Shown here: in pieces, positions 644-13,219 of the stretch
Layout of the letters: the number at the start of each line of letters is the position of its first letter
How positions within the stretch are numbered: the first letter of the stretch is position 1
NCBI GenBank assembly: GCA_038065475.1
Contig: JBBTQY010000015.1
Location: 6,608-70,607 of the forward strand
Reading direction: 5' to 3'
DNA length: 64,000 nt
Source: Patescibacteria group bacterium
GTDB lineage: Bacteria; Patescibacteriota; Minisyncoccia; Ryanbacterales; GWA2-47-10b
The notes under the pieces: model-generated
What the model saw: only the letters and a program-made list of their open reading frames with translations
Told to the model about the DNA's origin: nothing
Database searches by the model: none
Program-made: the position numbers and the translations under genes

Positions 644-1942
644 CTAGATGAGCTTTTCTCGAAATAGTGCTGCGACCTCCGAGATTACAATACGTTCTTG
701 TTTTGCTGTATCACGATCGCGAACGGTTACCGTACCGTCTTCCAGCGTCTGATAGTCAACTGTCACGCACCACGGCGTACCGATCTCGTCTTGCCTGCGG
801 TAGCGCTTGCCAATATTGCCGTTGTCGTCAAACATAACGCTGCCAAATTCTTTTTTGAGTCCGGTATAAACTTCTCGAGCTTTTGCGACGAGATCAGGCT
901 TGTTTTTAACAAGAGGAAAGACAGCTGCCTTTATGGGGGCGACCGATGGCTTGAACGCCAAGTATTCTCGTTTGTCGCCGCCTATCTCATCTTCACGATA
1001 TGCCGATACGAGGAGTGCGAGTATCGTTCTCTCAACTCCGAGCGACGGCTCGATGACATGCGGCTTAAGTCGCTCCTTGGTCTCTTCATCAAAATACTCA
1101 AGATCCTTGGAACTATATTCCATGTGTTTGGTAAGATCATAATCGGTACGATAGGCAAGACCGTATAATTCTTTTTTGCCAAACGGATACTCAAACTCAA
1201 AATCTATGGTGCGCTTTGAATAATGCGCACGATCGTCAGCAGCAATCTCAAGCTCACTGACCGACGTCATGTCAAGACCGATAGACTCGCACCAGGCGAG
1301 CATGACCATGCGCCACTCTTCGAACGCTCGCTGCCAATCATTTTCGCGAACAAAATACTCTACTTCCATTTGCTCAAATTCCCGCATGCGAAAAATAAAA
1401 TCTCGAGGCGTGATTTCATTGCGAAAGGCTTTACCAACCTGTGCGATACCAAAGGGAAGTTTAGGATGAAATACATCGACGATATTTTTAAAATTCACAA
1501 AAATACCTTGCGCCGTTTCAGGCCTTAAATACGATACGGCAGCGGAATCCTCCATGGCACCCACATGCGTTTTAAACATCATGTTGAACTGACGTGACTC
1601 ACCAAGCACCCCCCCGCATTCAGGACACTTGGCACCATCAACATGATCAGCGCGAAAGCGTTTTTTGCATTTCTTACATTCTACGAGCGGATCAGAAAAA
1701 CCAGCGACATGGCCTGAAGCTTCCCATACGCGGGCGTTCATCAAGAGTGCTGTATCAACTCCATACATATCCTCGCGGTCGGTTACAAACTTTTGCCACC
1801 ACAAATTTTTGATATTGTTTTTAAGCGCGACTCCTAACGGGCCATAATCCCACGTACCGGCAAGTCCGCCATAAATATCAGACCCGGGGAATATAAATCC
1901 CCTGCGTTTGGCAAGCGATACGATTGTTTCAAGTGAAGTCAT
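644..1942 (-). CDS. glyQS: Glycine--tRNA ligase (class II, single-chain GlyQS type)
   Basis: A 432-aa ORF with an N-terminus typical of GlyRS (GSDIYGGLAGTWDYGPLG...) and class-II synthetase motifs. Confidence 0.9.
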   Translation of the reverse strand: MTSLETIVSLAKRRGFIFPGSDIYGGLAGTWDYGPLGVALKNNIKNLWWQKFVTDREDMYGVDTALLMNARVWEASGHVAGFSDPLVECKKCKKRFRADHVDGAKCPECGGVLGESRQFNMMFKTHVGAMEDSAAVSYLRPETAQGIFVNFKNIVDVFHPKLPFGIAQVGKAFRNEITPRDFIFRMREFEQMEVEYFVRENDWQRAFEEWRMVMLAWCESIGLDMTSVSELEIAADDRAHYSKRTIDFEFEYPFGKKELYGLAYRTDYDLTKHMEYSSKDLEYFDEETKERLKPHVIEPSLGVERTILALLVSAYREDEIGGDKREYLAFKPSVAPIKAAVFPLVKNKPDLVAKAREVYTGLKKEFGSVMFDDNGNIGKRYRRQDEIGTPWCVTVDYQTLEDGTVTVRDRDTAKQERIVISEVAALFREKLI

Positions 1943-1979
1943 AGAAAAAACCTAGCACGGGTAAGACGTTATGCCAACG

Positions 1980-3875
1980 CTACTCCTCTACCGATCCCCC
2001 CTCGCGTGACGCGCGCGGATCATCGCGCAAAGAGGTAGTCGTCCGATCCGATATCTGAGTAATAGTGATATCGGCAAACGAATCACGCCCTTCAAACTTT
2101 GCGGCCGAGACAAGCTCCACCGCTTGACCTACTTGAGGCAGAGAAGGTGTCAATGCTATTTGAAACGCCACCTCACGCGCACGATTGGTAGTACCGGTGC
2201 CCGCAGGGATATTGCCAGGAATCCATGACACTTCGCGCGTGGCCTCGTTGAAGGTAATGGGGGCGCCCGACGGCGGATCGACAACGCCTCGCCATTTTAC
2301 ATATGAAGGAAGCGTCGCATGTACAACAGCGTCGGTAAGATCGTTGGTCGCATTAGTCACCGACCATACGATAAGATACGTCGTCTCTTGACCAACGCGC
2401 GGGGGTAGAGGTCCCGAATTGGTAATACGAGAATCATAGTAATAACCTTTTTGAGAAAAAGTAGCGCGTGTAGCAAGTTTATAGGTCACCACCTCTTCAC
2501 CCGAGATATCAACGCCCTCATATCCTGACGGTGATTCACGTGTTTGCATAATAGATTTAAACACGAGTGCGGGATTGCGTACGCTAATTATTTTCTTGGT
2601 TGCGATAGTAAATTCAAACGTCCCCGTCTCGCCCGGGTCTACCACCAAAAGTTCGGGGATGCGCCCCGGCACCCAGCGCAAAGCATTGCGACTCTGATCA
2701 AATTCTCCGCGGCTACTTGAGAGCGTTTTGATATCAAACGCCTCGCCTTCAAAAACTACCTCAACGGTAGCGTTTGATACTGCCACAGGAAGATTGTTTT
2801 GCCACTGGAGGATGCCTTTGACCGAAGTACCGGCAAGTAACACTCCTATATCGAGATCATCGGCAGAATCAATGACAAGTTTCGTGACCAAGAGTGGCGG
2901 CGTGATGGCAAATGTTTTTTCTGATGAGGTAAGGGTATCGAACTCATTTTTTGTGCGGTCATAAATACCCACCTTGGCCTTCATTGATTGGGGTGCGATT
3001 GAATCTTTGATGCGCCCCTTGATAGAAAGCTTGAAGGTCTCCCCCTTACCAAGATCGCCGATCGTCCAAATAGTATTGCCGCGTGTTGGCTTGATATCTG
3101 ATGAGATAAATTCAAATGCATCAGGATACATCATCTCAACTGAAATACCGCGAAAAGGCGTCTCGGCGCTCGATACCAGCGACAATTGGGCATCAATCTG
3201 CTGCCCCGCTTTAAGCTCCTTGGGTAATATCAACTCGAGGCCCAACAGCGACCCTTTAACGGGAGACTGATAAGAAGTTTCTTTAGCAAGAAGTACTGAC
3301 GAATCGCGCGGGCGATATTCGATCTTGGCCTGTCCTTTAAGAATCTCATCTTGTGCGCCAAATACGATTGCAGAAAAAAGTTCTTCTTTTTTATCACCAG
3401 GATTGATAGTACCAAGCTCACGGCGCTCCGGACGCAATCCGCCCTTCATGTAATCGCCCGCGAGCGGTTGCGTCATAGGAGGATAGGTAAAGACCAGCAC
3501 TGCCTTATCGAGTGCGATGTCATTTTTGTTTTCATACACTACGCGCCAGACGAGTTTTTTGCCAGCAATAGCTTCATCGGCTGACTCAACGGTAAGAAGT
3601 ATGTTTTTGCGTGAGTCGATGCCGAGAACAGCAAATTTCCCCGAGATGACGAAATACCCGAGTACCACGAGCGCGATCACCCCGAGACCGCCCCCGATAC
3701 CCCACCACAAAAGTTTGCGAAGAAATTTTTGCATAGAATCTTCTGCAGTTACCGGCTCTTCTTTCCAAGATACTGGCGCCTGCGCGTTATTTCGGCGAAG
3801 ACGCCAAGAATGCTCGCGGTCTTCAAACCCCTCGCCTTTTTTGAAAAGCCGCCGCCTGAGATCATCGAGCGCCAT
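1980..3875 (-). CDS. Large membrane-anchored surface protein (hypothetical). It has a short cytoplasmic N-terminus, one transmembrane helix and a long beta-rich extracytoplasmic region.
   Basis: The ORF is 649 aa. A hydrophobic segment (WWGIGGGLGVIALVVLGYFVI) is followed by about 550 aa of low-complexity beta-rich sequence. The likely start is the internal Met at 3875 (MALDDLRR...), which overlaps the recO stop by 14 nt. Confidence 0.5.
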   Translation of the reverse strand: MALDDLRRRLFKKGEGFEDREHSWRLRRNNAQAPVSWKEEPVTAEDSMQKFLRKLLWWGIGGGLGVIALVVLGYFVISGKFAVLGIDSRKNILLTVESADEAIAGKKLVWRVVYENKNDIALDKAVLVFTYPPMTQPLAGDYMKGGLRPERRELGTINPGDKKEELFSAIVFGAQDEILKGQAKIEYRPRDSSVLLAKETSYQSPVKGSLLGLELILPKELKAGQQIDAQLSLVSSAETPFRGISVEMMYPDAFEFISSDIKPTRGNTIWTIGDLGKGETFKLSIKGRIKDSIAPQSMKAKVGIYDRTKNEFDTLTSSEKTFAITPPLLVTKLVIDSADDLDIGVLLAGTSVKGILQWQNNLPVAVSNATVEVVFEGEAFDIKTLSSSRGEFDQSRNALRWVPGRIPELLVVDPGETGTFEFTIATKKIISVRNPALVFKSIMQTRESPSGYEGVDISGEEVVTYKLATRATFSQKGYYYDSRITNSGPLPPRVGQETTYLIVWSVTNATNDLTDAVVHATLPSYVKWRGVVDPPSGAPITFNEATREVSWIPGNIPAGTGTTNRAREVAFQIALTPSLPQVGQAVELVSAAKFEGRDSFADITITQISDRTTTSLRDDPRASREGGSVEE

Positions 3876-4446
3876 GAAAATAGTATAGCATGTGATTTGC
3901 GCGGAGTATCCCCTCGATACCCTCTTCAAAAGCTACCCGCTCATCGGGATCGGCAAAAAGCGTATCATCATCTTTTTCTAAGATAAAGGCTCGGGCTCTG
4001 GCGGAAAAAAATCTTGATTGCTCATGAATGTCGGGTAAGAAGCCGCTGACGTTAAGGGCTCGTATTTTGAAACGCGCCTCATCAGAAAAAGTACGTACTG
4101 CGTTGATACTCGCAACCAAATCCCACAAATCAAGATCGGGTTCTTCCCCTCCGGTGATGCGCAAGATAAAGTCAGCACATCGCTTGCGATGCGAGGTGGG
4201 GTTATCAACGGGCACAAGAGCCTCAGCATCAATAAGACGCCACGCGCTCCCGCCTCGAGTCAGCATCAAGCGTAACGGGGTAAAAAGGGTTAAGTGCCCG
4301 CGTAGCTTTGATTTGGCAAGACGTACTCCGGTGGCGATAGCATCAATCCGACCTAAATCTTTGGTAAAAAAAGTAAGATACATATCAGCCTCGCCACGCT
4401 CGCGAGACGCAAGCACGACGGCATCAGTGCCATAGTAATTGTTCAT
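3862..4446 (-). CDS. recO: DNA repair protein RecO. This is a short form with no obvious zinc-finger segment.
   Basis: The N-terminal OB-fold region (GIVLRxRDYGESD...A.GARRSK...L.PF) matches the RecO pattern. The ORF is 194 aa. Confidence 0.55.
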   Translation of the reverse strand: MNNYYGTDAVVLASRERGEADMYLTFFTKDLGRIDAIATGVRLAKSKLRGHLTLFTPLRLMLTRGGSAWRLIDAEALVPVDNPTSHRKRCADFILRITGGEEPDLDLWDLVASINAVRTFSDEARFKIRALNVSGFLPDIHEQSRFFSARARAFILEKDDDTLFADPDERVAFEEGIEGILRANHMLYYFHGAR

Positions 4447-4452
4447 ACCTCG

Positions 4453-7400
4453 CTATGCTTTTTCGACAGAGACGACGCTGGGCCCTTTGTTTGTATCGCT
4501 AACCTCAAGGTGTTTGGCGCGCGTACCCTTTTTGATAACTGCGAGCGCTGCGGGTGAAAATGAACCCGTGATCACGAGTACCACCGTATCGAGCGGCAAA
4601 AGGCCCGCTTTCTTGCGAGCGTCTTGAGCAAAACGAATGAGCTCGCGTACCTCGCCTTCTTCTTTGAGTGTTGGCGTGATAACCAAATCAAGTGCTGCGT
4701 CCTCAGTCAATTTACGATTCACGGTAATCTCTTTTACGTTGAGTTCTTCTTTTAGAATATTGAGGAGAGATGAGTCACGCAGTGTCATCCCTTTTACAAA
4801 CAACGCGCCGAGCGGCTGGCGTACCTTGATGCCATTGCGCGCGCGAAGCTCGAGGCCGCGTGCAGCAAGTGCTCGCACCTCATCCATACCGGCGACAAGC
4901 GCCTTGTTATAGGTCTGTTTTTTCGGCCAATCTTCCAAATGCACGCTCTCACGTTTGCCACCGGCAGCACGATATACTATCTCTGCGGTAAACGGGATAA
5001 AGGGAGCAGCAAGAATCGCCGTCTGTAAAAGCGTCTTACGCAAAACCTTGACTCCCTCGCCCGAACGCATTCGCTCGCGCGAGCGACGCACGTACCAGCG
5101 TGAGATGTCGTTACCTACAAAATCTTCAATGAGACGCGCCGCGCCCACCACATCGTAGGCATCCATGCGACGAGTAACCTCAGCGCTGACGAGCGCGCAC
5201 TTTGCCTCCATCCACAAATCAAGCGCATTTTTGCGCGAAGTCTTTTTTGCTACGGGCTTATACATCTCGTAGAAATTGAGTGTATTGAGAAAAAGGTCAA
5301 TAAAATTTCTTTTAGCTTTTTCGAGATCAGAGACATCAAAAAGCTTTGAATCACCCGGCTGGTTAATGGTAAAGAAAAACCAACGCACAGCATCAGCACT
5401 ATATTTTTCAAATAGATCCATGGGCTCCACCACGTTGCCGCGCGATTTTGACATTTTCTTGCCTTCCTTATCTAGAAGGTGTCCGAGCGATATGACATTT
5501 TTGTACGGAGCTTTTTTGCCAAGCAATGTGGAAACCGCAAGAAGCGTATAAAACCATCCGCGCGTTTGATCGATAGCCTCTGAGATAAAATCAGCGGGAT
5601 ATGCGATACCCTTATCAATGCGTTCTTTATTCTCAAACGGATAATGTTCGGCTGCAAACGGCATAGCGCCCGAGTCAAACCATACGTCAGCAACCTCAGG
5701 TGTGCGATCCATCTTGGTCAAACACCCGGGACACGTAACCAAAAAATCATCGATAAATGGCTTGTGCAAATCCGTCTCGCCAAGCTTATTGCGTGGCACG
5801 GCCACGGGAGCTACGCGATGCACATCGGCGTTTTTGAGATATTTTGCGGGAGAGATTTCGTCCGGTTGCTGCATGCCTCGCATAATCCCCTCCAAAAACC
5901 AAAGAGGATCGCCGTGCCCTACGACAAGAATTTTTTTCTTTTTATGCAAACTCTCGAGTCTTTGGAAAAAGCGGTGGCTGCGAATTTTAACATCGGCCCA
6001 TGACTCACCTCCCGGAAACGGATGGGTGAGAATTTCTTCGGCCGTATGTTTCTTCCACATATCCTCGACAAGCTCGCCTTCATAGTCTCCTGGATTATGT
6101 TCGCGCAAATCAGCATCAAACAGCACAGGAACGCGCAGCTCGCGCGCAAGAATTGCAGCCGTCTCGCGCGTGCGCGTCAGGTCAGAGGATACAATGAGCT
6201 GGATACCGGCTTTTTTGAGACCTGCGGCAGCTTTCTTTACTTCTGTTTTTCCGCGCGGCAAAAGCCCATATGAATCATTGAGCTTGGCAGTGGCAATACC
6301 GAGCAAATTATTTTTTGCAAAACCATGGCGCATCAGATAATAAGTATTCGAAGACTTTGGTGCGCGTTCAGTAAGCTCTGCTAAAGAGCCGATGACATCG
6401 ACGTGCCCACACTCTTTACACGTCCAGACAGGAAGCGGCGTGCCCCAGTAACGCTCGCGAGAAAACGCCCAATCTTTATCTTCACGGAGCCACTGGCCAA
6501 AACGCCCGTCGCGAAGATGCTGGGGATGCCAGTTGATAGATTTATTTGCCTCCACCATCTTGGGACGCACCGCACTCACCTTTACCCACCATGACTTACG
6601 TACGCGATAGATAAGCGGCGTGTCACATCGCCAGCAAAACGGATAATCATGCTCATACAATGCTTCTTTAAAAAGAAGGCCCTTCTGTATTAAGTCTTTT
6701 ACGATCAGCGGATCAGCTTCTTTGACAAATATTCCGCGCCACTGTGGTACCGCATCGGTAAATTGACCTGCATCGTTGACGGTTACATAGGTGGGTAAAC
6801 CTTCGCGTTTGCCTACCTTGAGGTCGTCATCACCAAATGCGGGCGCAATATGCACAATACCAGTACCTTCTTGATCGGTGATAAAGGTACCACTCACAAC
6901 CCGATATGGAATATCGGGCGCAGGATACGGCGCGTCATATTCAAGCCCCAAAAGCTTTGAGCCGGGCTCGCGCCAGAGCGGCTCGAGACCGGGAAAGAGC
7001 TTGGCCGCGAGCGACCCGAGCACGATAAGCTGCTCACCCCGATCATCAACGGTAACGTACTCGAGATCTGGATGAACGGCTGCCGCTACGTTTGCAGGCA
7101 ATGTCCATGGAGTTGTCGTCCAAACCAACAAAGACGCGCGGCGTGTCTTGAGACGAAAACGCACATAAACCGAAGGATCTTTTACTTTTTTATATCCTTG
7201 GGCGAGCTCGTGCGATGATAATGCGGTGCCACAACGCGCGCACCACGGCACCACCTTGTCATCTTGGTAGAGTAGCTTGCGTGAGGCAAACTCTTTGACA
7301 ATCCACCAGAGTGATTCGATATAAGAATTTTTGTATGTGACATAGGCATCTTTTGTGTCTAGCCAATACCCCATGCGTTCGGTAACCTTCTCCCACTGAT

Positions 7401-7812
7401 TGGTATATGACCACACCGATTCTTTACACTTGCGATTAAAAGGTTCGATACCGTATGCCTCAATGTCTTGCTTTAATTTAAAACCGAGCGCTTTCTCAAC
7501 GCCGATCTCGACAGGAAGGCCGTGAGTATCCCACCCAGCACGGCGCTCAACCAAAAACCCCTGCATAGTTTTATAACGCGCCACAACATCTTTAAATGCG
7601 CGCGCCTCCACATGATGCAGGCCCGGCATGCCATTTGCGGTAGGCGGCCCCTCAAAAAAAACAAAGCGCTTTGCTTTCCGCGCGCGCTGCCGAATACTCT
7701 TTTCAAAAATTTTTTTCTGGGTCCAAAATCCAAGGACTCCAAGCTCGTCTCGCATTTTTTTATCATAATCGAAATACCTCCCTCTTTCAATACCAAAACA
7801 AAATGCGCCCAT
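4453..7812 (-). CDS. ileS: Isoleucine--tRNA ligase carrying an embedded histidine-phosphatase-like domain
   Basis: The ORF is 1119 aa. Its N-terminus has the class-I HIGH-type region (PPTANGMPGLHH), and it contains TTPWT, WCWRC, a WTCKECG zinc knuckle, DVWFDSG and KMSKS. Residues about 485-668 (nt about 5809-6360) form an inserted domain with RHG, SSDLTRTRETA and VGHGD motifs. Confidence 0.9.
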   Translation of the reverse strand: MGAFCFGIERGRYFDYDKKMRDELGVLGFWTQKKIFEKSIRQRARKAKRFVFFEGPPTANGMPGLHHVEARAFKDVVARYKTMQGFLVERRAGWDTHGLPVEIGVEKALGFKLKQDIEAYGIEPFNRKCKESVWSYTNQWEKVTERMGYWLDTKDAYVTYKNSYIESLWWIVKEFASRKLLYQDDKVVPWCARCGTALSSHELAQGYKKVKDPSVYVRFRLKTRRASLLVWTTTPWTLPANVAAAVHPDLEYVTVDDRGEQLIVLGSLAAKLFPGLEPLWREPGSKLLGLEYDAPYPAPDIPYRVVSGTFITDQEGTGIVHIAPAFGDDDLKVGKREGLPTYVTVNDAGQFTDAVPQWRGIFVKEADPLIVKDLIQKGLLFKEALYEHDYPFCWRCDTPLIYRVRKSWWVKVSAVRPKMVEANKSINWHPQHLRDGRFGQWLREDKDWAFSRERYWGTPLPVWTCKECGHVDVIGSLAELTERAPKSSNTYYLMRHGFAKNNLLGIATAKLNDSYGLLPRGKTEVKKAAAGLKKAGIQLIVSSDLTRTRETAAILARELRVPVLFDADLREHNPGDYEGELVEDMWKKHTAEEILTHPFPGGESWADVKIRSHRFFQRLESLHKKKKILVVGHGDPLWFLEGIMRGMQQPDEISPAKYLKNADVHRVAPVAVPRNKLGETDLHKPFIDDFLVTCPGCLTKMDRTPEVADVWFDSGAMPFAAEHYPFENKERIDKGIAYPADFISEAIDQTRGWFYTLLAVSTLLGKKAPYKNVISLGHLLDKEGKKMSKSRGNVVEPMDLFEKYSADAVRWFFFTINQPGDSKLFDVSDLEKAKRNFIDLFLNTLNFYEMYKPVAKKTSRKNALDLWMEAKCALVSAEVTRRMDAYDVVGAARLIEDFVGNDISRWYVRRSRERMRSGEGVKVLRKTLLQTAILAAPFIPFTAEIVYRAAGGKRESVHLEDWPKKQTYNKALVAGMDEVRALAARGLELRARNGIKVRQPLGALFVKGMTLRDSSLLNILKEELNVKEITVNRKLTEDAALDLVITPTLKEEGEVRELIRFAQDARKKAGLLPLDTVVLVITGSFSPAALAVIKKGTRAKHLEVSDTNKGPSVVSVEKA
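5809..6360 (-). other. Histidine phosphatase (phosphoglycerate-mutase-like) domain inserted within IleS
   Basis: The segment LMRHGFAKNN ... SSDLTRTRETAAIL ... VVGHGDPLWFL matches the branch-1 histidine phosphatase signature ([LIVM]xRHG; SS.L.R...TA; .GHG). It lies between the CKECG zinc knuckle and the CPGC/DVWFDSG region. Confidence 0.6.
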
Positions 7813-7844
7813 GGGCGCATTTTGACATCGAATTTTTTACAAGA

Positions 7845-8546
7845 TTATTCGGCTATAACTACTTCGGTCATAACATCGCCCTGCGCAATTTTAAGCAAGA
7901 TATCCATTCCTTTAGTTACACGACCAAAGACGGTATGGCGACCATCGAGATGCGGCTGAGCACTTTCCGTGATGATGAAAAACTGACTGCCATTGGTGTT
8001 TGGCCCTCGATTTGCCATCGAAATAACACCTACGTCATTTTTCATCGACTTAAGCTCGTAATTGTATTTGTATCCAGCACTCTCGAGGCCTGCAATGGTT
8101 TCAGCGGGCACGTCAAGAACTTTTGGATTAATCTCATCTTCAAATTCATAGCCGGGACCACCCGTGCCATTGCCGACAGGATCGCCGCCCTGCGCCATAA
8201 AGCCTGCGATTACCCGATGAAACGTCAATCCGTTGTAAAATCCTTTTTTCGCTAATCCCACAAAGTTTGAAACAGTCTTTGGTGCGACACTAGGGTAAAG
8301 CTCGAGTTCGATATCACCTTTTTGTGTTTTGATTGTTGCTTTCACAGTTTCTCCTTGAAATTGCATAACCTCGGGCTCAGTCATTGTCTCAGAAGACGGT
8401 TGCGTTGCCTGATCGGTCAGTGAGGCAGTACCAGCATTGTCTACCGGTTTTGCGGGCGCGCTCGTACCAAGCCAAACAACTCCGCCAAATACAACGAAGA
8501 GTGCGAGAAGTCCGATAATAACATTTCGTGGTTGTTGCATATCCAT
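7845..8546 (-). CDS. ppiB: Peptidyl-prolyl cis-trans isomerase, cyclophilin type, with an N-terminal membrane anchor
   Basis: The cyclophilin core is present ([15 protein letters not shown]...GTGGPGY...QFFI). An N-terminal hydrophobic anchor is present ([19 protein letters not shown]). The start was chosen at the internal MDMQQ (8546); the longest ORF would extend to 8627. Confidence 0.85.
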
Positions 8547-8587
8547 ATGTGAAGATAGTAATTGTTTTTTGAGAGAGACGCAACTGT

Positions 8588-10216
8588 TTACATCGTTTCC
8601 GGAGTTGAGATGCCCATGAGCTGGCACTGACGACGCAACGTATCACGGAAAAGAGAAACGAGCGCTAAGCGCGCGTATTCAAGATCGGCACGTTCGCCAA
8701 TCACATGCGTCGTCTCATAAAAATGCGTAAAAGCGCGAGCGAAATCAACCGCAAAGCGCGAGAGGCGCTGGAGCGCAAAATCTTCGGCGGTCTGACTTAT
8801 CACGTCGGGCAATGCCAAAACCATCTTGATAAGCGCCCACTCAGCCTCAGTCTCGAGTACCGGCCACGCAACTTTTTTATAATTTATTTTGCGCCCTTGC
8901 TGATATCCAGCTTTTTTGAGAATGCTTGATGCGCGCGCATACGCATACTGTATATAGTAGACAGGATTGTCTTTTGATTTGGCGCGTGCCAAATCTATAT
9001 CAAAGGTCATGGCAGAGCGTGGCGCGTACTGCAGCATGAAAAACCGAAAGGCGTCTTTGCCCACGGTATCGAGTAATTCTTCGGCGGTGACAAAATTGCC
9101 CTTGCGCTTGGCCATCGAAACTACCTGACCATCTTTTTTGAGTGTTACAAGACCGTGAACCACGATCTTAAGATTTTCTTGAGGGAATCCAAAGGCATCA
9201 GCAACTGCGCGAAGTTTTGGTATATGGCCTTCATGACCATCACCCAACTCATCTACCACTAAATCTGCGCGTTTAAATTTTTCTGCATGGTACGCAATAT
9301 CGTTTGCGAAATAGACATAGGTGCCGTCACTCTTGATGACGACTGCCTCGCGCTCGCCCAAATTGTCGTCTTTAGGTGTAAACCACGTGGCACCTTCTTT
9401 TTTGGTCAACAATCCTTTTTTATCAAGCAGGGCGAGCGCGCGCTTGGTTTTCGCCTCAAGATCGCTCTCGGCAGTCACCTTATCGAACAAAATACCCATA
9501 CGCTTTGCCAAAGCCAAGTTATCTTTGAGCATGCGCGCGAGCGCGACTTTGGTAATACGTTCTTTATAAATATCAGGTTTGTTAACAATCTTGGCGCCGT
9601 ATTTTTTGTGTACGGCTTTGCCCATCTCTTGGACATACTCACCTTGATAGCCGTCTTCTGCGAGCGTTGACTCTTCTCCGCACGCGATCAAATACCAATG
9701 CCAAAGTGAGTTGGCAAAGCGACCAATCTGCGCGCCCGCATCGTTGTGAAAATATTCACGCACTACTTTGTATCCGCGATCAGCGAGAAGATTCGCCACT
9801 ACGTCGCCGATGGGTCCTGAGCGCGCATTGCCCACATGCATGGGGCCCGTAGGATTAGCTGAGACATATTCAACCGATGCCGTACCAAGCTTTGGCTTTG
9901 GCATCGGCGCGAAAGAATCGCGCAAGATCTCAGTCAGATACTGTTTATCAAAATAAAAATTTAGGAAGCCGGGTTGAGCTGCCTCGATCTTGCTGAAAAC
10001 AGGTAGGTGTTTTTCTTTGACGCGTATGGCGATATCTTCGGCGACCGCCATGGGCAAGCGCTTCTCAACTTTGGCGCGTACAAGCGCGATGTTTGACGAA
10101 TAGTCTCCCCGCCCCGCTACCTCTTGGCGCTCGACCGAAAAAGGCACGTCACTACCTATCTCGCGGCGCAAGACATCTTCTATATAGGTACGTAGATTCC
10201 GCTCCATAGGCATCAC
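8588..10216 (-). CDS. argS: Arginine--tRNA ligase
   Basis: A 542-aa ORF with a HIGH-type motif ([17 protein letters not shown]) and the ArgRS anticodon-binding C-terminus. Confidence 0.9.
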
Positions 10217-10885: not shown

Positions 10886-11240
10886 GGGAGTGACAGGCCT
10901 CGACGGGGTCTCGACTCTTTGAAAATCAGGCAAGAGCAGGTGTGGTCACCTCTTTCAAAAATGCCACACGCCAATAAGTGCAAACTTATTTAACCGCCAG
11001 CCGGCGATGGCTTTTGCCTAAGCCGCAGGCGTTTCTCTAGCCACTACGTGCTAGAGCATCGGTCCGCAACCGCTAGGTGCGTGGAATGCCGGTGTTATAA
11101 TCCCTAGCTAGTGCGCACTATGCTCGATACCCGCGCGCGAAACTAATCGAGCAAACTCTCTTGCTTCGTGCTTGAGTACGCCTGTATAAATTTTTATTGA
11201 GAAGAACTTTCGGACGGCGGTTCGATTCCGCCCACTTCCA
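10886..11240 (+). ncRNA. ssrA: tmRNA (SsrA), standard one-piece form
   Basis: The 5' end GGGAGTGACAGGCCTCGACGGGG resembles the E. coli tmRNA 5' end. The 3' end ...GGACGGCGGTTCGATTCCGCCCACTTCCA forms a tRNA-like T-arm and a 7-bp acceptor stem with the 5' strand (GGGAGTG/CACTTCC, one G-U pair). The resume context TAAGT-GCA-AAC at 10980 is followed by an in-frame 13-codon tag ORF ending TAA at 11019-11021. CCA is not encoded. Confidence 0.75.
10980..11021 (+). other. tmRNA tag-peptide reading frame, with predicted tag (A)ANLFNRQPAMAFA
   Basis: The frame GCA AAC TTA TTT AAC CGC CAG CCG GCG ATG GCT TTT GCC TAA lies downstream of a UAAGU resume context analogous to E. coli UAGUC-GCA-AAC. Confidence 0.5.
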
Positions 11241-11293
11241 CTGAAATAGTTCGTTTACAACCGACAACGCAGCTAACCTTGTAGGAGAATCAA

Positions 11294-11506
11294 ATGCTCT
11301 GCACAATTTGCAAGCAAAGAGAAGCGACACAGACTGTCTTTAGCCAGGACTGTTGCGAGGACAGCATCTGCTGCAGAGGCGCCGAGAGCAAAGCCGAATT
11401 CTTGGGGTCGCCAATCAAAAGCTATGATTACAGAGTCCCCTCGAGTGGGAATCGCTGGGTGCGCCGCAAGCCACCACTCGACCAGCTCGATGACGATTTG
11501 GACTAG
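11294..11506 (+). CDS. Small Cys-rich hypothetical protein
   Basis: A 70-aa ORF with an AGGAG ribosome-binding site (RBS) 7 nt upstream. The N-terminus carries CTICKQ...CCEDSICC. It lies inside the GC-rich island directly after ssrA. Confidence 0.25.
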   Translation: MLCTICKQREATQTVFSQDCCEDSICCRGAESKAEFLGSPIKSYDYRVPSSGNRWVRRKPPLDQLDDDLD

Positions 11507-11543
11507 CCAGCCTGACAACGAGCGGCAAAGGAGGCCGCAGCAA

Positions 11544-12566
11544 ATGCAACCAATCTATGCCGACACGCTCGGCTTCATCGGCGGCAAAATGGGGCCGCCA
11601 GAGTTCACGCCCGAGATCTTCGCGCGCTTGCGCGAGAGCGGCGTGCGACTTGTTCAGTGGGCTGGACCCCATCCGGCCCATCAGAAATGGGAAAACCTCA
11701 TCCACGAGGTGCGCGAGACTGAGGGACGATTGGAGAGTCTTCCGCACCAATTCCGAATCGTACGAAACGGCCGTGACCTCAGGGTCATCGAGCACACCGA
11801 CATCGTCTACGTGGTAATGGGAATTCAAAACCCTTGTCTCATTGAAGATCGATGGGATCGACTCGATGAGCTCAAGGAGGCTGGGGTGCGCGTCATGCAA
11901 GTCGCCTACTGGGACGAGCGTGATGCCATCTACGGGTGCGGATACCTGACCGAGAACGACACGGGACTCACCGCCCTCGGGCATGAATACCTCCGGGAGC
12001 TCGCGAAACGCGGATTCATCCTCGATCTCTCCCACACAGGAGAGCGTACTGCTCTCGAAGCACTCGAGGCGTACTCAGGTCGCGTAATGATCTCGCATAC
12101 GGGCAGCCGCCAAGCCTACAATCATCCCCGTAACGCGACAAACGACATCATCCGCCGGGTGGCGGAACGGGATGGCATCATCGGCATCTACACCATGACC
12201 TTCTTCCTCGATGCTGAAAACAATGGCATCGAGTCGTGGCTTCGGCACGTCGACTACGTCGCGCATACGGCCAACTGGCGTTGGGCAAACACCATCACCG
12301 TCGGGTCCGATGCACCAGTCACGGGCTTTACCAACATCGAGGAAGCCGAGGCAGATTTCCCACGGCTCACGGCCTCGCTCGAACGCGGACGACCCATCAA
12401 TCCTCGATGGGCACCGCGCTGGCCTGCGTTCACACCGGAGTTCAACGGGACAGACCGGTTTCGTGTGATGGAACGTGCACTTGCAGCATGGTGTGGGCTG
12501 GAGGTAGCGAGCAGAATCTGCGGCACCAACGCTCGCAACTTCTATCTCTACTCAATCAAACCTTAG
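11544..12566 (+). CDS. Membrane dipeptidase (peptidase M19, renal-dipeptidase family)
   Basis: The motifs DLSHTGERT...ISHTGSRQAYNHPRNATNDIIRRVAERDGIIGI match the M19 conserved His/Asp metal-ligand pattern. The start was chosen at MQPIYAD with an AAAGGAGG RBS 8 nt upstream. The coding sequence is GC-rich. Confidence 0.7.
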   Translation: MQPIYADTLGFIGGKMGPPEFTPEIFARLRESGVRLVQWAGPHPAHQKWENLIHEVRETEGRLESLPHQFRIVRNGRDLRVIEHTDIVYVVMGIQNPCLIEDRWDRLDELKEAGVRVMQVAYWDERDAIYGCGYLTENDTGLTALGHEYLRELAKRGFILDLSHTGERTALEALEAYSGRVMISHTGSRQAYNHPRNATNDIIRRVAERDGIIGIYTMTFFLDAENNGIESWLRHVDYVAHTANWRWANTITVGSDAPVTGFTNIEEAEADFPRLTASLERGRPINPRWAPRWPAFTPEFNGTDRFRVMERALAAWCGLEVASRICGTNARNFYLYSIKP

Positions 12567-12600
12567 CCGACCCAAAACGGGGGTCGCCGTAAACAAACCG

Positions 12601-12637
12601 TTCCGGCTCGCGCGTTCCACGTGCGAGCCGTTTTTTA
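12601..12637 (+). terminator. Rho-independent terminator after the dipeptidase gene
   Basis: The 10-bp stem ggctcgcgcg...cgtgcgagcc is followed by gTTTTTTa. A shorter hairpin cgaccc-aaaac-gggtcg precedes it. Confidence 0.5.
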
Positions 12638-12733
12638 TGATAAAAAAATTGAAAAATTATTGTTGACAACTCGGCTTTTTCTAATCTATAAGAAAAGAAG
12701 TAGATCTTCGCAAGAAGAGAACAAGGAGGCCAT

Positions 12734-13219
12734 GTGTTGTCCACGATTCTTTTGCTCGTAGCACTCGCGGCTCCCCCGACTTCCTCAACGCCCCCGCCAC
12801 AGGCGTCGCAATCCAGCTCAGTGCCAGATTGTACCGGGGAGAAGGTGAAGGACTTCGAGCCGGTACTGCACGAACACGACAGCACTATTCAAGCCGTAGG
12901 GCTCGGTCGTTCGCTCTATGAGAACTCCGGCACGGGTCGCAAGTGTCTCTTCTACTCCTCAAGTAAGGGAGGAGAAGTAATCTGGCAGACGCGAAGAGAT
13001 GACGACGGTTCTTTCACCGCATGGGTACTACAAAAAGACAAGTCGTATCGAAAGTACGAAAACGCGGCCATACGGTATGATAACGAGATTCAGCAAGATG
13101 AAGAAGGAAACGAGACTCTCGTTTTCCTGCTCGAGATAGTGCGCCCGAACAACAACATGAAGGATGTGGTGGACACCGCTTCGTTCGCCTTCGAAATAAA
13201 GCGGGGCCGGAGCGCGTAA
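12734..13219 (+). CDS. Small secreted hypothetical protein (GTG start)
   Basis: An AAGGAGG RBS lies 4 nt upstream of the GTG. The N-terminal signal-like segment is LSTILLLVALAAPPTSS. The coding sequence is GC-rich. Confidence 0.45.
   Translation: MLSTILLLVALAAPPTSSTPPPQASQSSSVPDCTGEKVKDFEPVLHEHDSTIQAVGLGRSLYENSGTGRKCLFYSSSKGGEVIWQTRRDDDGSFTAWVLQKDKSYRKYENAAIRYDNEIQQDEEGNETLVFLLEIVRPNNNMKDVVDTASFAFEIKRGRSA

Follow-up and report, generated by a model that had tools for sequence, protein, structure and literature searches.

The 64-kb window, by which we mean the whole stretch of DNA that was analysed, carries on its reverse strand an ileS gene encoding a type-2 isoleucyl-tRNA synthetase (IleRS) that is interrupted by a histidine phosphatase (His_Phos) domain (Table 1). 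The reading frame is uninterrupted over 4453..7812 (-) and reaches 1119 aa in the ORF listing if counted from an upstream ATG at 7812, but the true start is likely M20, because Ryanbacteria homologs begin MRDE. Residues are numbered here from the ORF start, so that R495, H496, R547, E571 and H633 correspond to R476, H477, R528, E552 and H614 when counted from M20. Conservation was read from two alignments: A1, comprising 56 full-length homologs including locus-derived Ryanbacteria sequences, and A2, a set of 54. Neighbouring genes in the window encode a class II aminoacyl-tRNA synthetase (aaRS), a DUF11 protein, RecO, a cyclophilin, ArgS, tmRNA and an M19 dipeptidase, a housekeeping set in which we found no hint to the function of the insert. 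An HMM of the insert, run over the window's ORFs in all six frames, found no second His_Phos gene.

Table 1. Features of the ileS locus, in window coordinates.
Feature	Position	Strand	Basis or remark
ileS CDS, type-2 IleRS with inserted phosphatase domain	4453..7755	(-)	1100 aa from M20 (likely start)
Class I signature motif, non-canonical GLHH (G/AXHH) instead of HXGH	7612..7623	(-)	read from sequence
First zinc knuckle (WCARCG ... CWRC) with the CP1 editing domain between its halves	6625..7245	(-)	read from sequence
CP3 N-terminal half: WTCKECG zinc-knuckle pair (C465, C468) and short helix, to the insertion point	6349..6426	(-)	
His_Phos_1 domain insert, N489-V672, 184 residues	5797..6348	(-)	Pfam, model, dN/dS
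RHG motif: R495 and predicted nucleophile H496	6322..6330	(-)	invariant in 56 and 54 full-length homologs
R547, second phosphate-binding Arg, in SSDLTRTRETA	6172..6174	(-)	aligns with the matching Arg of PspA 4ij5
E571, predicted general acid	6100..6102	(-)	aligns with Glu of PspA
H633, second catalytic His, in VGHGD	5914..5916	(-)	invariant in alignments A1 and A2
CP3 C-terminal half: PRNKLGETDLHKPFIDD and CPGC zinc-knuckle pair (C694, C697), then DVWFDSG	5722..5796	(-)	
KMSKS catalytic loop motif, residue 786	5443..5457	(-)	sequence

The whole protein scores 814 bits against the NCBIfam model for ileS (TIGR00392, cut-off 621.4), and the Pfam family tRNA-synt_1 matches it in two stretches (E=5.4e-110) with His_Phos_1 between them. 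The C-terminal domains typical of type-2 enzymes are recognised by PF19302 (28.5 versus a cut-off of 27), and the G/AXHH variant of the class I signature is documented for IleRS2 (PMC10485003). An AlphaFold model of the full-length protein (pLDDT 92.2, pTM 0.88) finds its best PDB matches by Foldseek in IleRS2 (8c8v) and the Thermus thermophilus enzyme (1ile). The CP1 editing motifs TTTPWTLP and GTGIVHIAP are intact and are invariant or near-invariant in A2. Two more specialised assignments were rejected: the mupirocin-resistance enzymes MupA/MupB (NF000257/NF000258, 745-752 versus a cut-off of 1900), whose match we attribute to shared type-2 ancestry only, and IleRS with an inserted acetyltransferase (ileS_w_GNAT, NF040702, 297.8 versus a cut-off of 1999), no acetyltransferase Pfam match being present in the window protein.

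Pfam places His_Phos_1 (PF00300) at residues 492-644 (E=1.7e-30, 106.5 bits versus a cut-off of 21.7), and comparison with P0251, an IleRS whose CP3 is uninterrupted, sets the boundaries of the insert at N489 and V672. The first-pass annotation had described an insert of about 180 aa at 5809..6360 (residues 485-668); its ends shift by 4 codons. As that annotation had reported, the insert lies in one continuous IleRS ORF, flanked by the WTCKECG and CPGC halves of a zinc knuckle, and all of the motifs it quoted are found (WTCKECG at 463, RHG at 495-497, SSDLTRTRETA at 542, VGHGD at 631, CPGC at 694, DVWFDSG at 709 and KMSKS at 786). Its placement of the insertion within the catalytic core needs correction: the host is indeed IleRS, but the site is the peripheral connective-peptide subdomain CP3 and not the Rossmann core itself. 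CP3 with a zinc motif has been described in T. thermophilus IleRS, from which we take the definition of the subdomain (PMC7191050). The insert occupies the distal loop of CP3, and both of its termini meet at the zinc knuckle formed by C465/C468 and C694/C697, downstream of which the chain continues into DVWFDSG and the remaining half of the Rossmann fold.

The architecture is widespread. A homolog search recovered the same insert in 269 of the 270 relatives retrieved, and all carriers with an organism name belong to the CPR/Patescibacteria; two Candidatus Ryanbacteria MAGs, each with its own genome record, have the same architecture at 87% and 74% identity. IleRS flank and insert were matched together in all 150 50%-identity cluster representatives among the matches listed, and PF00133 and PF00300 co-occur in 119 of the best 120 profile matches. 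An assembly chimera or frameshift artefact that fused a phosphatase gene to ileS is excluded for practical purposes, because the architecture recurs in independent assemblies, with the same in-frame junctions in independent MAGs and hundreds of contigs from NCBI, JGI, ENA and Logan. The IleRS sequence moreover returns in register downstream of the insert, and composition is uniform over both junctions, the insert and the rest of the gene having GC of 0.495 and 0.500 and GC3 of 0.484 and 0.50, respectively. In favour of an artefact nothing was found beyond the frameshifts that break a single distant homolog contig, L001. An intein or other mobile element was also considered and rejected, given that the usual intein junction residues are not seen in the sequence, the composition resembles that of the host and the fold is that of an ordinary enzyme. 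Estimates of dN/dS are 0.03-0.13 for the insert and 0.04-0.06 for the host (approximate values, dS being saturated), with pN far under pS, and by these sequence comparisons the insert is under purifying selection.

Modelled by itself, the insert gives pLDDT 89.5 and pTM 0.87, and the 10-residue blocks at its two junctions have pLDDT of about 87-96 in the full-length model; on these models it is an autonomous alpha/beta/alpha domain. Foldseek aligns it to PspA (4ij5/4ij6, TM 0.80, rmsd 2.1 A) and PhoE (1h2e, TM 0.79), and together with the Pfam and NCBIfam matches this establishes the branch-1 histidine phosphatase assignment made in the first pass. The label "PGM-like" given there is right for the superfamily and fails for the mutase itself, all dPGM models scoring far below their cut-offs. 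In favour of a cofactor-dependent phosphoglycerate mutase feeding glycolysis are the shared superfamily and the label "phosphoglycerate mutase" that many distant homologs have at JGI, but we regard this identity as extremely improbable: pgm_1 (TIGR01258) reaches 23.7 bits versus 81.7 and dPGM_arch (NF038349) 64-68 versus 225, mutases fall below phosphatases in both sequence-profile and fold searches (PspA, PhoE, CobC and GpgP rank over them in the PDB profile search), and the residues from the acid position onward, E-H-N-P-G-D-Y-E-G, differ from what we take to be the mutase pattern.

Among phosphatases, the insert is 30-35% identical, approximately, to free-standing broad-specificity enzymes, with no feature that sets it apart from them and no pointer to a tRNA or adenylate substrate seen in its sequence. 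It was rejected as alpha-ribazole phosphatase CobC (TIGR03162, 72.9-78 versus a cut-off of 162.9) and as phosphoserine phosphatase PspA (NF045917, 58-63 versus 350), although PspA is its closest solved structure. The insert lies under every equivalog cut-off and therefore no specific substrate can be assigned; any single named substrate is, at best, decidedly unlikely.

The catalytic residues are strongly conserved. R495, H496 and H633 are invariant, and R547 and E571 are kept in at least 90%, of the 54-56 full-length homologs, which are 35-48% identical; the RHG histidine and the second histidine, both previously described as intact, are present as H496 and H633 and align with conserved homolog positions. 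Among 275 inserted IleRS-family domains, the second His is found in all, the R-H pair in 274 and the full R-H-R-[E/D]-H set in 272 (98.9%), with the acid position occupied by E in 223 and by D in 49. The first-pass annotation had left open whether the insert is active or purely structural, and this pattern favours an active phosphatase. We also weighed a non-catalytic module on CP3, either a structural brace or a pseudo-enzyme that binds phosphate or tRNA. RNA binding is a frequent role of peripheral aaRS insertions, 24 of the 82 ValRS copies discussed below lack the acid residue or the second His, and in the window protein the "LT..G" motif has Pro where Thr is near-invariant, all of which would suit such a module. 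However, the conservation of nucleophile His, both Arg, acid and second His at this level of sequence divergence argues against it, as mere binding would not fix a nucleophile together with a general acid, and we consider a non-catalytic role highly doubtful. The insert is, judging from residue conservation, very probably catalytically active. Hydrolysis of a phosphomonoester would proceed via a phospho-H496 intermediate, with the phosphate held by R495, R547 and H633 and the leaving group protonated by E571.

His_Phos domains are also found elsewhere in these synthetases. In related IleRS they occur at two further sites, one between WFDSG and DQTRGWF (site B) and one downstream of KMSKS (site C), and some IleRS carry tandem copies, up to four; these variants lie on several independent contigs, the largest of 1.06 Mb. 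Of 119 CPR ValRS relatives, 70 contain His_Phos, in most cases within CP3 at the homologous position. The acid residue and/or second His is lost in about 29% of the ValRS copies (24/82), so catalysis is not kept in every case once ValRS is included. In our view, the three IleRS sites, the tandem copies and the homologous ValRS site suggest that phosphatase activity matters to class Ia synthetases.

This recurrence bears on whether the phosphatase has any tie to its host. It could be an ordinary broad-specificity or metabolic phosphatase (directed, for example, to phosphoserine, sugar phosphates or nucleotides) without mechanistic connection to aminoacylation, lodged in an essential gene that would be constitutively expressed in a streamlined genome. 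The insert does resemble generic PhoE/GpmB/CobC/PspA-type enzymes, with which it has the PGGES...R signature in common, models as an autonomous domain and has ileS as its sole HMM match in the window. Co-expression, however, would be served by a terminal fusion, and the insertion here is internal; the use of three internal IleRS sites, arrays of up to four copies and the same CP3 site in ValRS also count against an unconnected phosphatase, which we judge somewhat unlikely. Recurrence in a pair of sister synthetases would be difficult to account for if proximity brought no advantage.

We consider it probable, from sequence features, that in this Candidatus Ryanbacteria-like CPR bacterium the gene encodes a bifunctional housekeeping type-2 IleRS containing an active PhoE/PspA/CobC-like phosphomonoesterase. 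The phosphatase would add an active site, the second or third, to a polypeptide that also has the synthetic and CP1 editing sites, and the IleRS part, with its GLHH signature, KMSKS loop and editing motifs intact, would function normally. We give functional coupling of the insert to aminoacylation or tRNA slightly less than even chances. If it exists, the likeliest link would be either a tRNA end that bears phosphate or a nucleotide-type phosphomonoester of the aminoacylation cycle, for instance AMP or a different nucleoside phosphate. Action on the aminoacyl-adenylate Ile-AMP is unlikely on chemical grounds, since it is a mixed anhydride or diester and offers no phosphomonoester to the established His_Phos mechanism. 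In its strongest form, coupling would make the insert a third integrated catalytic site of CPR class Ia synthetases, located on CP3 and acting on phosphorylated species of the aminoacylation cycle. Before charging, such a site might relieve damaged or toxin-modified tRNA ends of a 3'-(pyro)phosphate or a 2',3'-cyclic-derived phosphate; alternatively, it might clear AMP or other nucleotide by-products. Selection in cis for tRNA-end repair or for defence could then explain why IleRS and ValRS captured the domain repeatedly. We regard this specific proposal as unlikely.

Few known enzymes are as conserved as aminoacyl-tRNA synthetases, and new catalytic domains in their cores are rare and have been informative, the classic case being the CP1 editing domain. 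The literature we searched contains no description of a His_Phos domain within IleRS; the architecture is mentioned neither in a survey of 96,219 IleRS sequences (2026, bioRxiv 10.64898/2026.02.03.703510) nor in a survey of domain insertions (PMC13114784), and the names in public annotation go no further than "isoleucine--tRNA ligase" or "class I tRNA ligase family protein". A phosphatase predicted to be catalytically intact appears fixed in IleRS and ValRS over a very large bacterial radiation, with 150 or more 50%-identity clusters carrying it, several insertion sites and up to four copies. If coupled to aminoacylation, it would be a new auxiliary synthetase activity; if uncoupled, it would show strikingly how essential genes in streamlined genomes can act as landing pads for metabolic domains.

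Compared with known synthetases, the whole-enzyme fold resembles that of Priestia megaterium IleRS2 (8c8v, Foldseek E=2.5e-91, TMt 0.80) and T. thermophilus IleRS (1ile, TMt 0.92, 37% identity), and the CP1 editing motifs, KMSKS, two zinc knuckles and PF19302 domains are common to it and bacterial IleRS2. Whereas solved IleRS structures have only a short zinc-binding or helical CP3 (PMC7191050), here a 184-residue domain of catalytic type interrupts it. The free branch-1 phosphatases PspA (4ij5), PhoE (1h2e), CobC (6nru/6e4b), GpgP (4pz9) and HFP (9mmh) have a like fold (TM 0.74-0.80), the catalytic RHG, R, E and H set and the PGGES...R signature in common with the insert, which, unlike them, is part of a larger protein. 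P0003, the nearest free-standing homolog, lies in a genomic context unrelated to ileS. The RNase H/acid phosphatase family (NF005567, Rv2228c type), among the better NCBIfam matches of the insert (63-67 bits, far under the cut-off of 326), likewise joins a CobC-like His_Phos domain to a nucleic-acid enzyme, but by end-to-end fusion with RNase H instead of internal insertion. A precedent for an enzyme domain inside IleRS is the N-acetyltransferase of the NF040702 family, on which no paper was found in the literature searched; the window protein is without this GNAT domain, and one relative, P0243, carries GNAT and His_Phos inserts in the same IleRS. The CP1 editing domain of class Ia enzymes is likewise hydrolytic and enters via a connective peptide in the Rossmann fold, with a zinc knuckle clamping its base. 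CP1, however, is universal and acts on mischarged tRNA, whereas the His_Phos insert, whose carriers with an organism name are all CPR/Patescibacteria, is lineage-specific and is predicted to perform phosphomonoesterase-type chemistry.

The uninterrupted 1119-aa ileS frame, which the first-pass annotation had also read as one continuous ORF, encodes a protein with Pfam matches to tRNA-synt_1 in two stretches (E=5.4e-110), Anticodon_1 and DUF5915, and scores 814 bits against the NCBIfam ileS model TIGR00392 (cut-off 621.4). Its full-length AlphaFold model (pLDDT 92.2, pTM 0.88) matches P. megaterium IleRS2 (8c8v, E=2.5e-91) and T. thermophilus IleRS (1ile, TMt 0.92), and the host enzyme is a type-2 IleRS. 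Its class I signature reads GLHH, the G/AXHH variant known from IleRS2, on which it confers mupirocin hyper-resistance (PMC10485003); among insert-bearing IleRS, both HXGH and G/AXHH types are found. Because both Candidatus Ryanbacteria homologs begin MRDE..., matching M20 of the window protein, translation probably begins at M20 (7755). The gene lies within a housekeeping run on the reverse strand (644..10216). Farther along, a GC-rich island at 11250..12750 (0.57-0.60 versus about 0.48 around it) overlaps an M19 membrane-dipeptidase gene, and island and gene may have been acquired horizontally.

Features of the ileS gene and its neighbourhood in the window
Feature	Position	Strand	Remark
Class II aaRS	644..1942	-	
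DUF11 surface-type protein	1980..3929	-	
RecO	3862..4446	-	
ileS ORF	4453..7812	-	No interruption, 1119 aa
His_Phos insert N489-V672	5797..6348	-	Comparison with uninterrupted CP3 of P0251
Class I signature motif	7612..7623	-	GLHH in place of HXGH
ileS upstream extension	7756..7812	-	19 codons ahead of conserved MRDE start
Cyclophilin	7845..8627	-	
ArgS	8588..10216	-	
tmRNA gene	10886..11243	+	Rfam 87.9 bits; ARAGORN tag peptide ANLFNRQPAMAFA
M19 membrane-dipeptidase gene	11424..12566	+	

Pfam places a His_Phos_1 domain at residues 492-644 of this synthetase (E=1.7e-30). The boundaries come from P0251, a homologous IleRS whose uninterrupted CP3 runs from ...GSLIELQKKSQKEL straight into PRNDAGEVDLHRP..., the window insert falling between the two. 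The first-pass annotation had located the domain at 5809..6360, or residues 485-668; the domain is there, with its boundaries rather at N489 and V672. All the motifs it quoted were found in place, and the insert sits where it had said, between the zinc knuckle and the CPGC/DVWFDSG region, bracketed by the Cys pairs C465/C468 and C694/C697 directly ahead of DVWFDSG. By the domain definition in PMC7191050 the insertion site is CP3, the subdomain that bridges CP2 and the Rossmann fold's second half and that, in T. thermophilus IleRS, bears a zinc motif. Lying between the knuckle's Cys pairs, the phosphatase domain thus sits on a connective peptide at the periphery, adjoining the active site, both ends clamped by the zinc knuckle; this refines the earlier placement in the catalytic core, the site being outside the Rossmann core itself. 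In the full-length model the 10-residue blocks at both junctions have pLDDT of about 87-96.

Modelled alone, the insert folds confidently (pLDDT 89.5, pTM 0.87) and superposes on the phosphoserine phosphatase PspA (4ij5/4ij6, TM 0.80, rmsd 2.1 A), on PhoE (1h2e, TM 0.79), and on a riboflavin-pathway HFP (9mmh), CobC and GpgP, with mutases ranking below phosphatases. A phmmer alignment to PspA sets R495/H496, R547, E571 and H633 opposite catalytic residues, both histidines being intact, and the insert shares the PGGES...R signature with free phosphatases of its type. Within branch 1 of the histidine phosphatases, the insert is of the PhoE/GpmB/CobC/PspA type. The best phosphatase NCBIfam models (CobC, archaeal dPGM, RNase H/acid phosphatase, PspA) score far under their cut-offs. 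Of the original "PGM-like" label the phosphatase fold stands; the phosphoglycerate mutase (dPGM) reading is rejected, as no curated model supports it.

An assembly chimera is rejected because the same architecture recurs in separate MAGs and in 269 of 270 retrieved proteins, and because the insert's GC and GC3 are those of its host gene. When a single genome for each species was scanned with a 267-residue junction query, the entire junction region was found in two Candidatus Ryanbacteria MAGs with separate genome records (isolates Baikal-deep-G209 and CH-Oct18-76; 87% and 74% identity, in unbroken ORFs of 1099 and 1100 aa), and Gemmatimonadales, Thermodesulfobacteriota and Saccharibacteria loci matched the IleRS flanks only. 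When 1.84 billion cluster representatives were searched exhaustively with HMMER, at least 150 proteins matched; nearly all of those listed match flank, insert and flank in one stretch, with E<=1e-30 for 120 of the 150 listed, and 119 of the best 120 profile-search proteins carry PF00133 with PF00300. Source names of carriers include Parcubacteria, Patescibacteria, Pacebacteria, Nealsonbacteria and Peregrinibacteria/Peribacteria. On one distant homolog contig (L001, 2165..5223), frameshifts split ileS into three ORFs; the insert is kept at the same site, but WRSADGSEQ stands in place of the first Cys pair of the zinc knuckle. P0288, a double-length (2230 aa) IleRS-like protein lacking PF00300, may have arisen by tandem duplication of ileS or by a fusion.

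Codon comparison of the window ileS with two Ryanbacteria ileS genes gave pS of 0.63-0.74 and pN of 0.06-0.17 in the insert, and a dN/dS of 0.03-0.13 versus 0.04-0.06 in the synthetase parts, values that are approximate since dS is saturated. Across 54-56 full-length homologs at just 35-48% identity, the insert never varies in its RH pair, in one Gly, one Ser and one Glu, or in its second His, and conservation of the second Arg and of the acid residue is at least 90%. In IleRS a purely structural role is unlikely, as R-H-R-[E/D]-H is kept in 272 of 275 complete inserted domains; such conservation is what one expects of an enzyme, not of a spacer. These data demonstrate that the insertion in CP3 of a housekeeping IleRS2 is real, ancient and under selection, and that it consists of an autonomous histidine-phosphatase fold with its catalytic set intact.

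His_Phos domains occupy three IleRS positions: site A in CP3, which accounts for most cases (at least 227 proteins); site B between WFDSG and DQTRGWF (P0222, P0204); and site C after KMSKS, where the anticodon-binding domain begins (P0251, P0182, P0222, P0263). Up to three sites are occupied in a single IleRS. Four proteins (P0250, P0205, P0246, P0225) bear tandem pairs at site A, the B+C variant was seen on six contigs (largest 1.06 Mb), and every site B, site C and tandem copy retains the catalytic set. The IleRS P0243 (1561 aa; L009 10001..14686) combines His_Phos in CP3 with GNAT domains (a Pfam stretch spanning residues 308-394 and a weaker match near 965-1000), and its type is present on contigs up to 2.1 Mb. 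P0185 is a ValRS (410.8 bits to valS versus 199.4 to ileS) with four His_Phos copies. A search seeded with it yielded 119 CPR ValRS relatives (P0417-P0535; Gracilibacteria, Peregrinibacteria), 70 of which carry His_Phos, mostly at the homologous CP3 site; with P0185 included, these ValRS bear one to four copies. In the set found by the search, 24 of 82 copies (about 29%) lack the acid residue, the second His or both. One such ValRS, P0520, and a P0243-cluster member may share a genome, the longest contig being 287,512 for both.

The insert is probably an active phosphomonoesterase acting via phospho-H496. That IleRS and ValRS have captured the domain repeatedly, and at several sites, suggests an advantage in being close to a class Ia synthetase; a nucleotide phosphomonoester or phosphorylated tRNA end, speculative as a substrate, would fit such an advantage. 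The strongest competing reading is that a metabolic phosphatase hitch-hikes within an essential gene. Sequence comparison with free broad-specificity phosphatases revealed no distinguishing feature of the insert.

Pfam annotations already computed for hundreds of public proteins show the architecture; these proteins are named simply "isoleucine--tRNA ligase" or "class I tRNA ligase family protein" at source. No description of an IleRS with a histidine phosphatase turned up in the literature searched, and neither an IleRS domain survey of 96,219 sequences nor a survey of domain insertions mentions it. Synthetases with an extra inserted catalytic domain are in themselves a known kind of enzyme.
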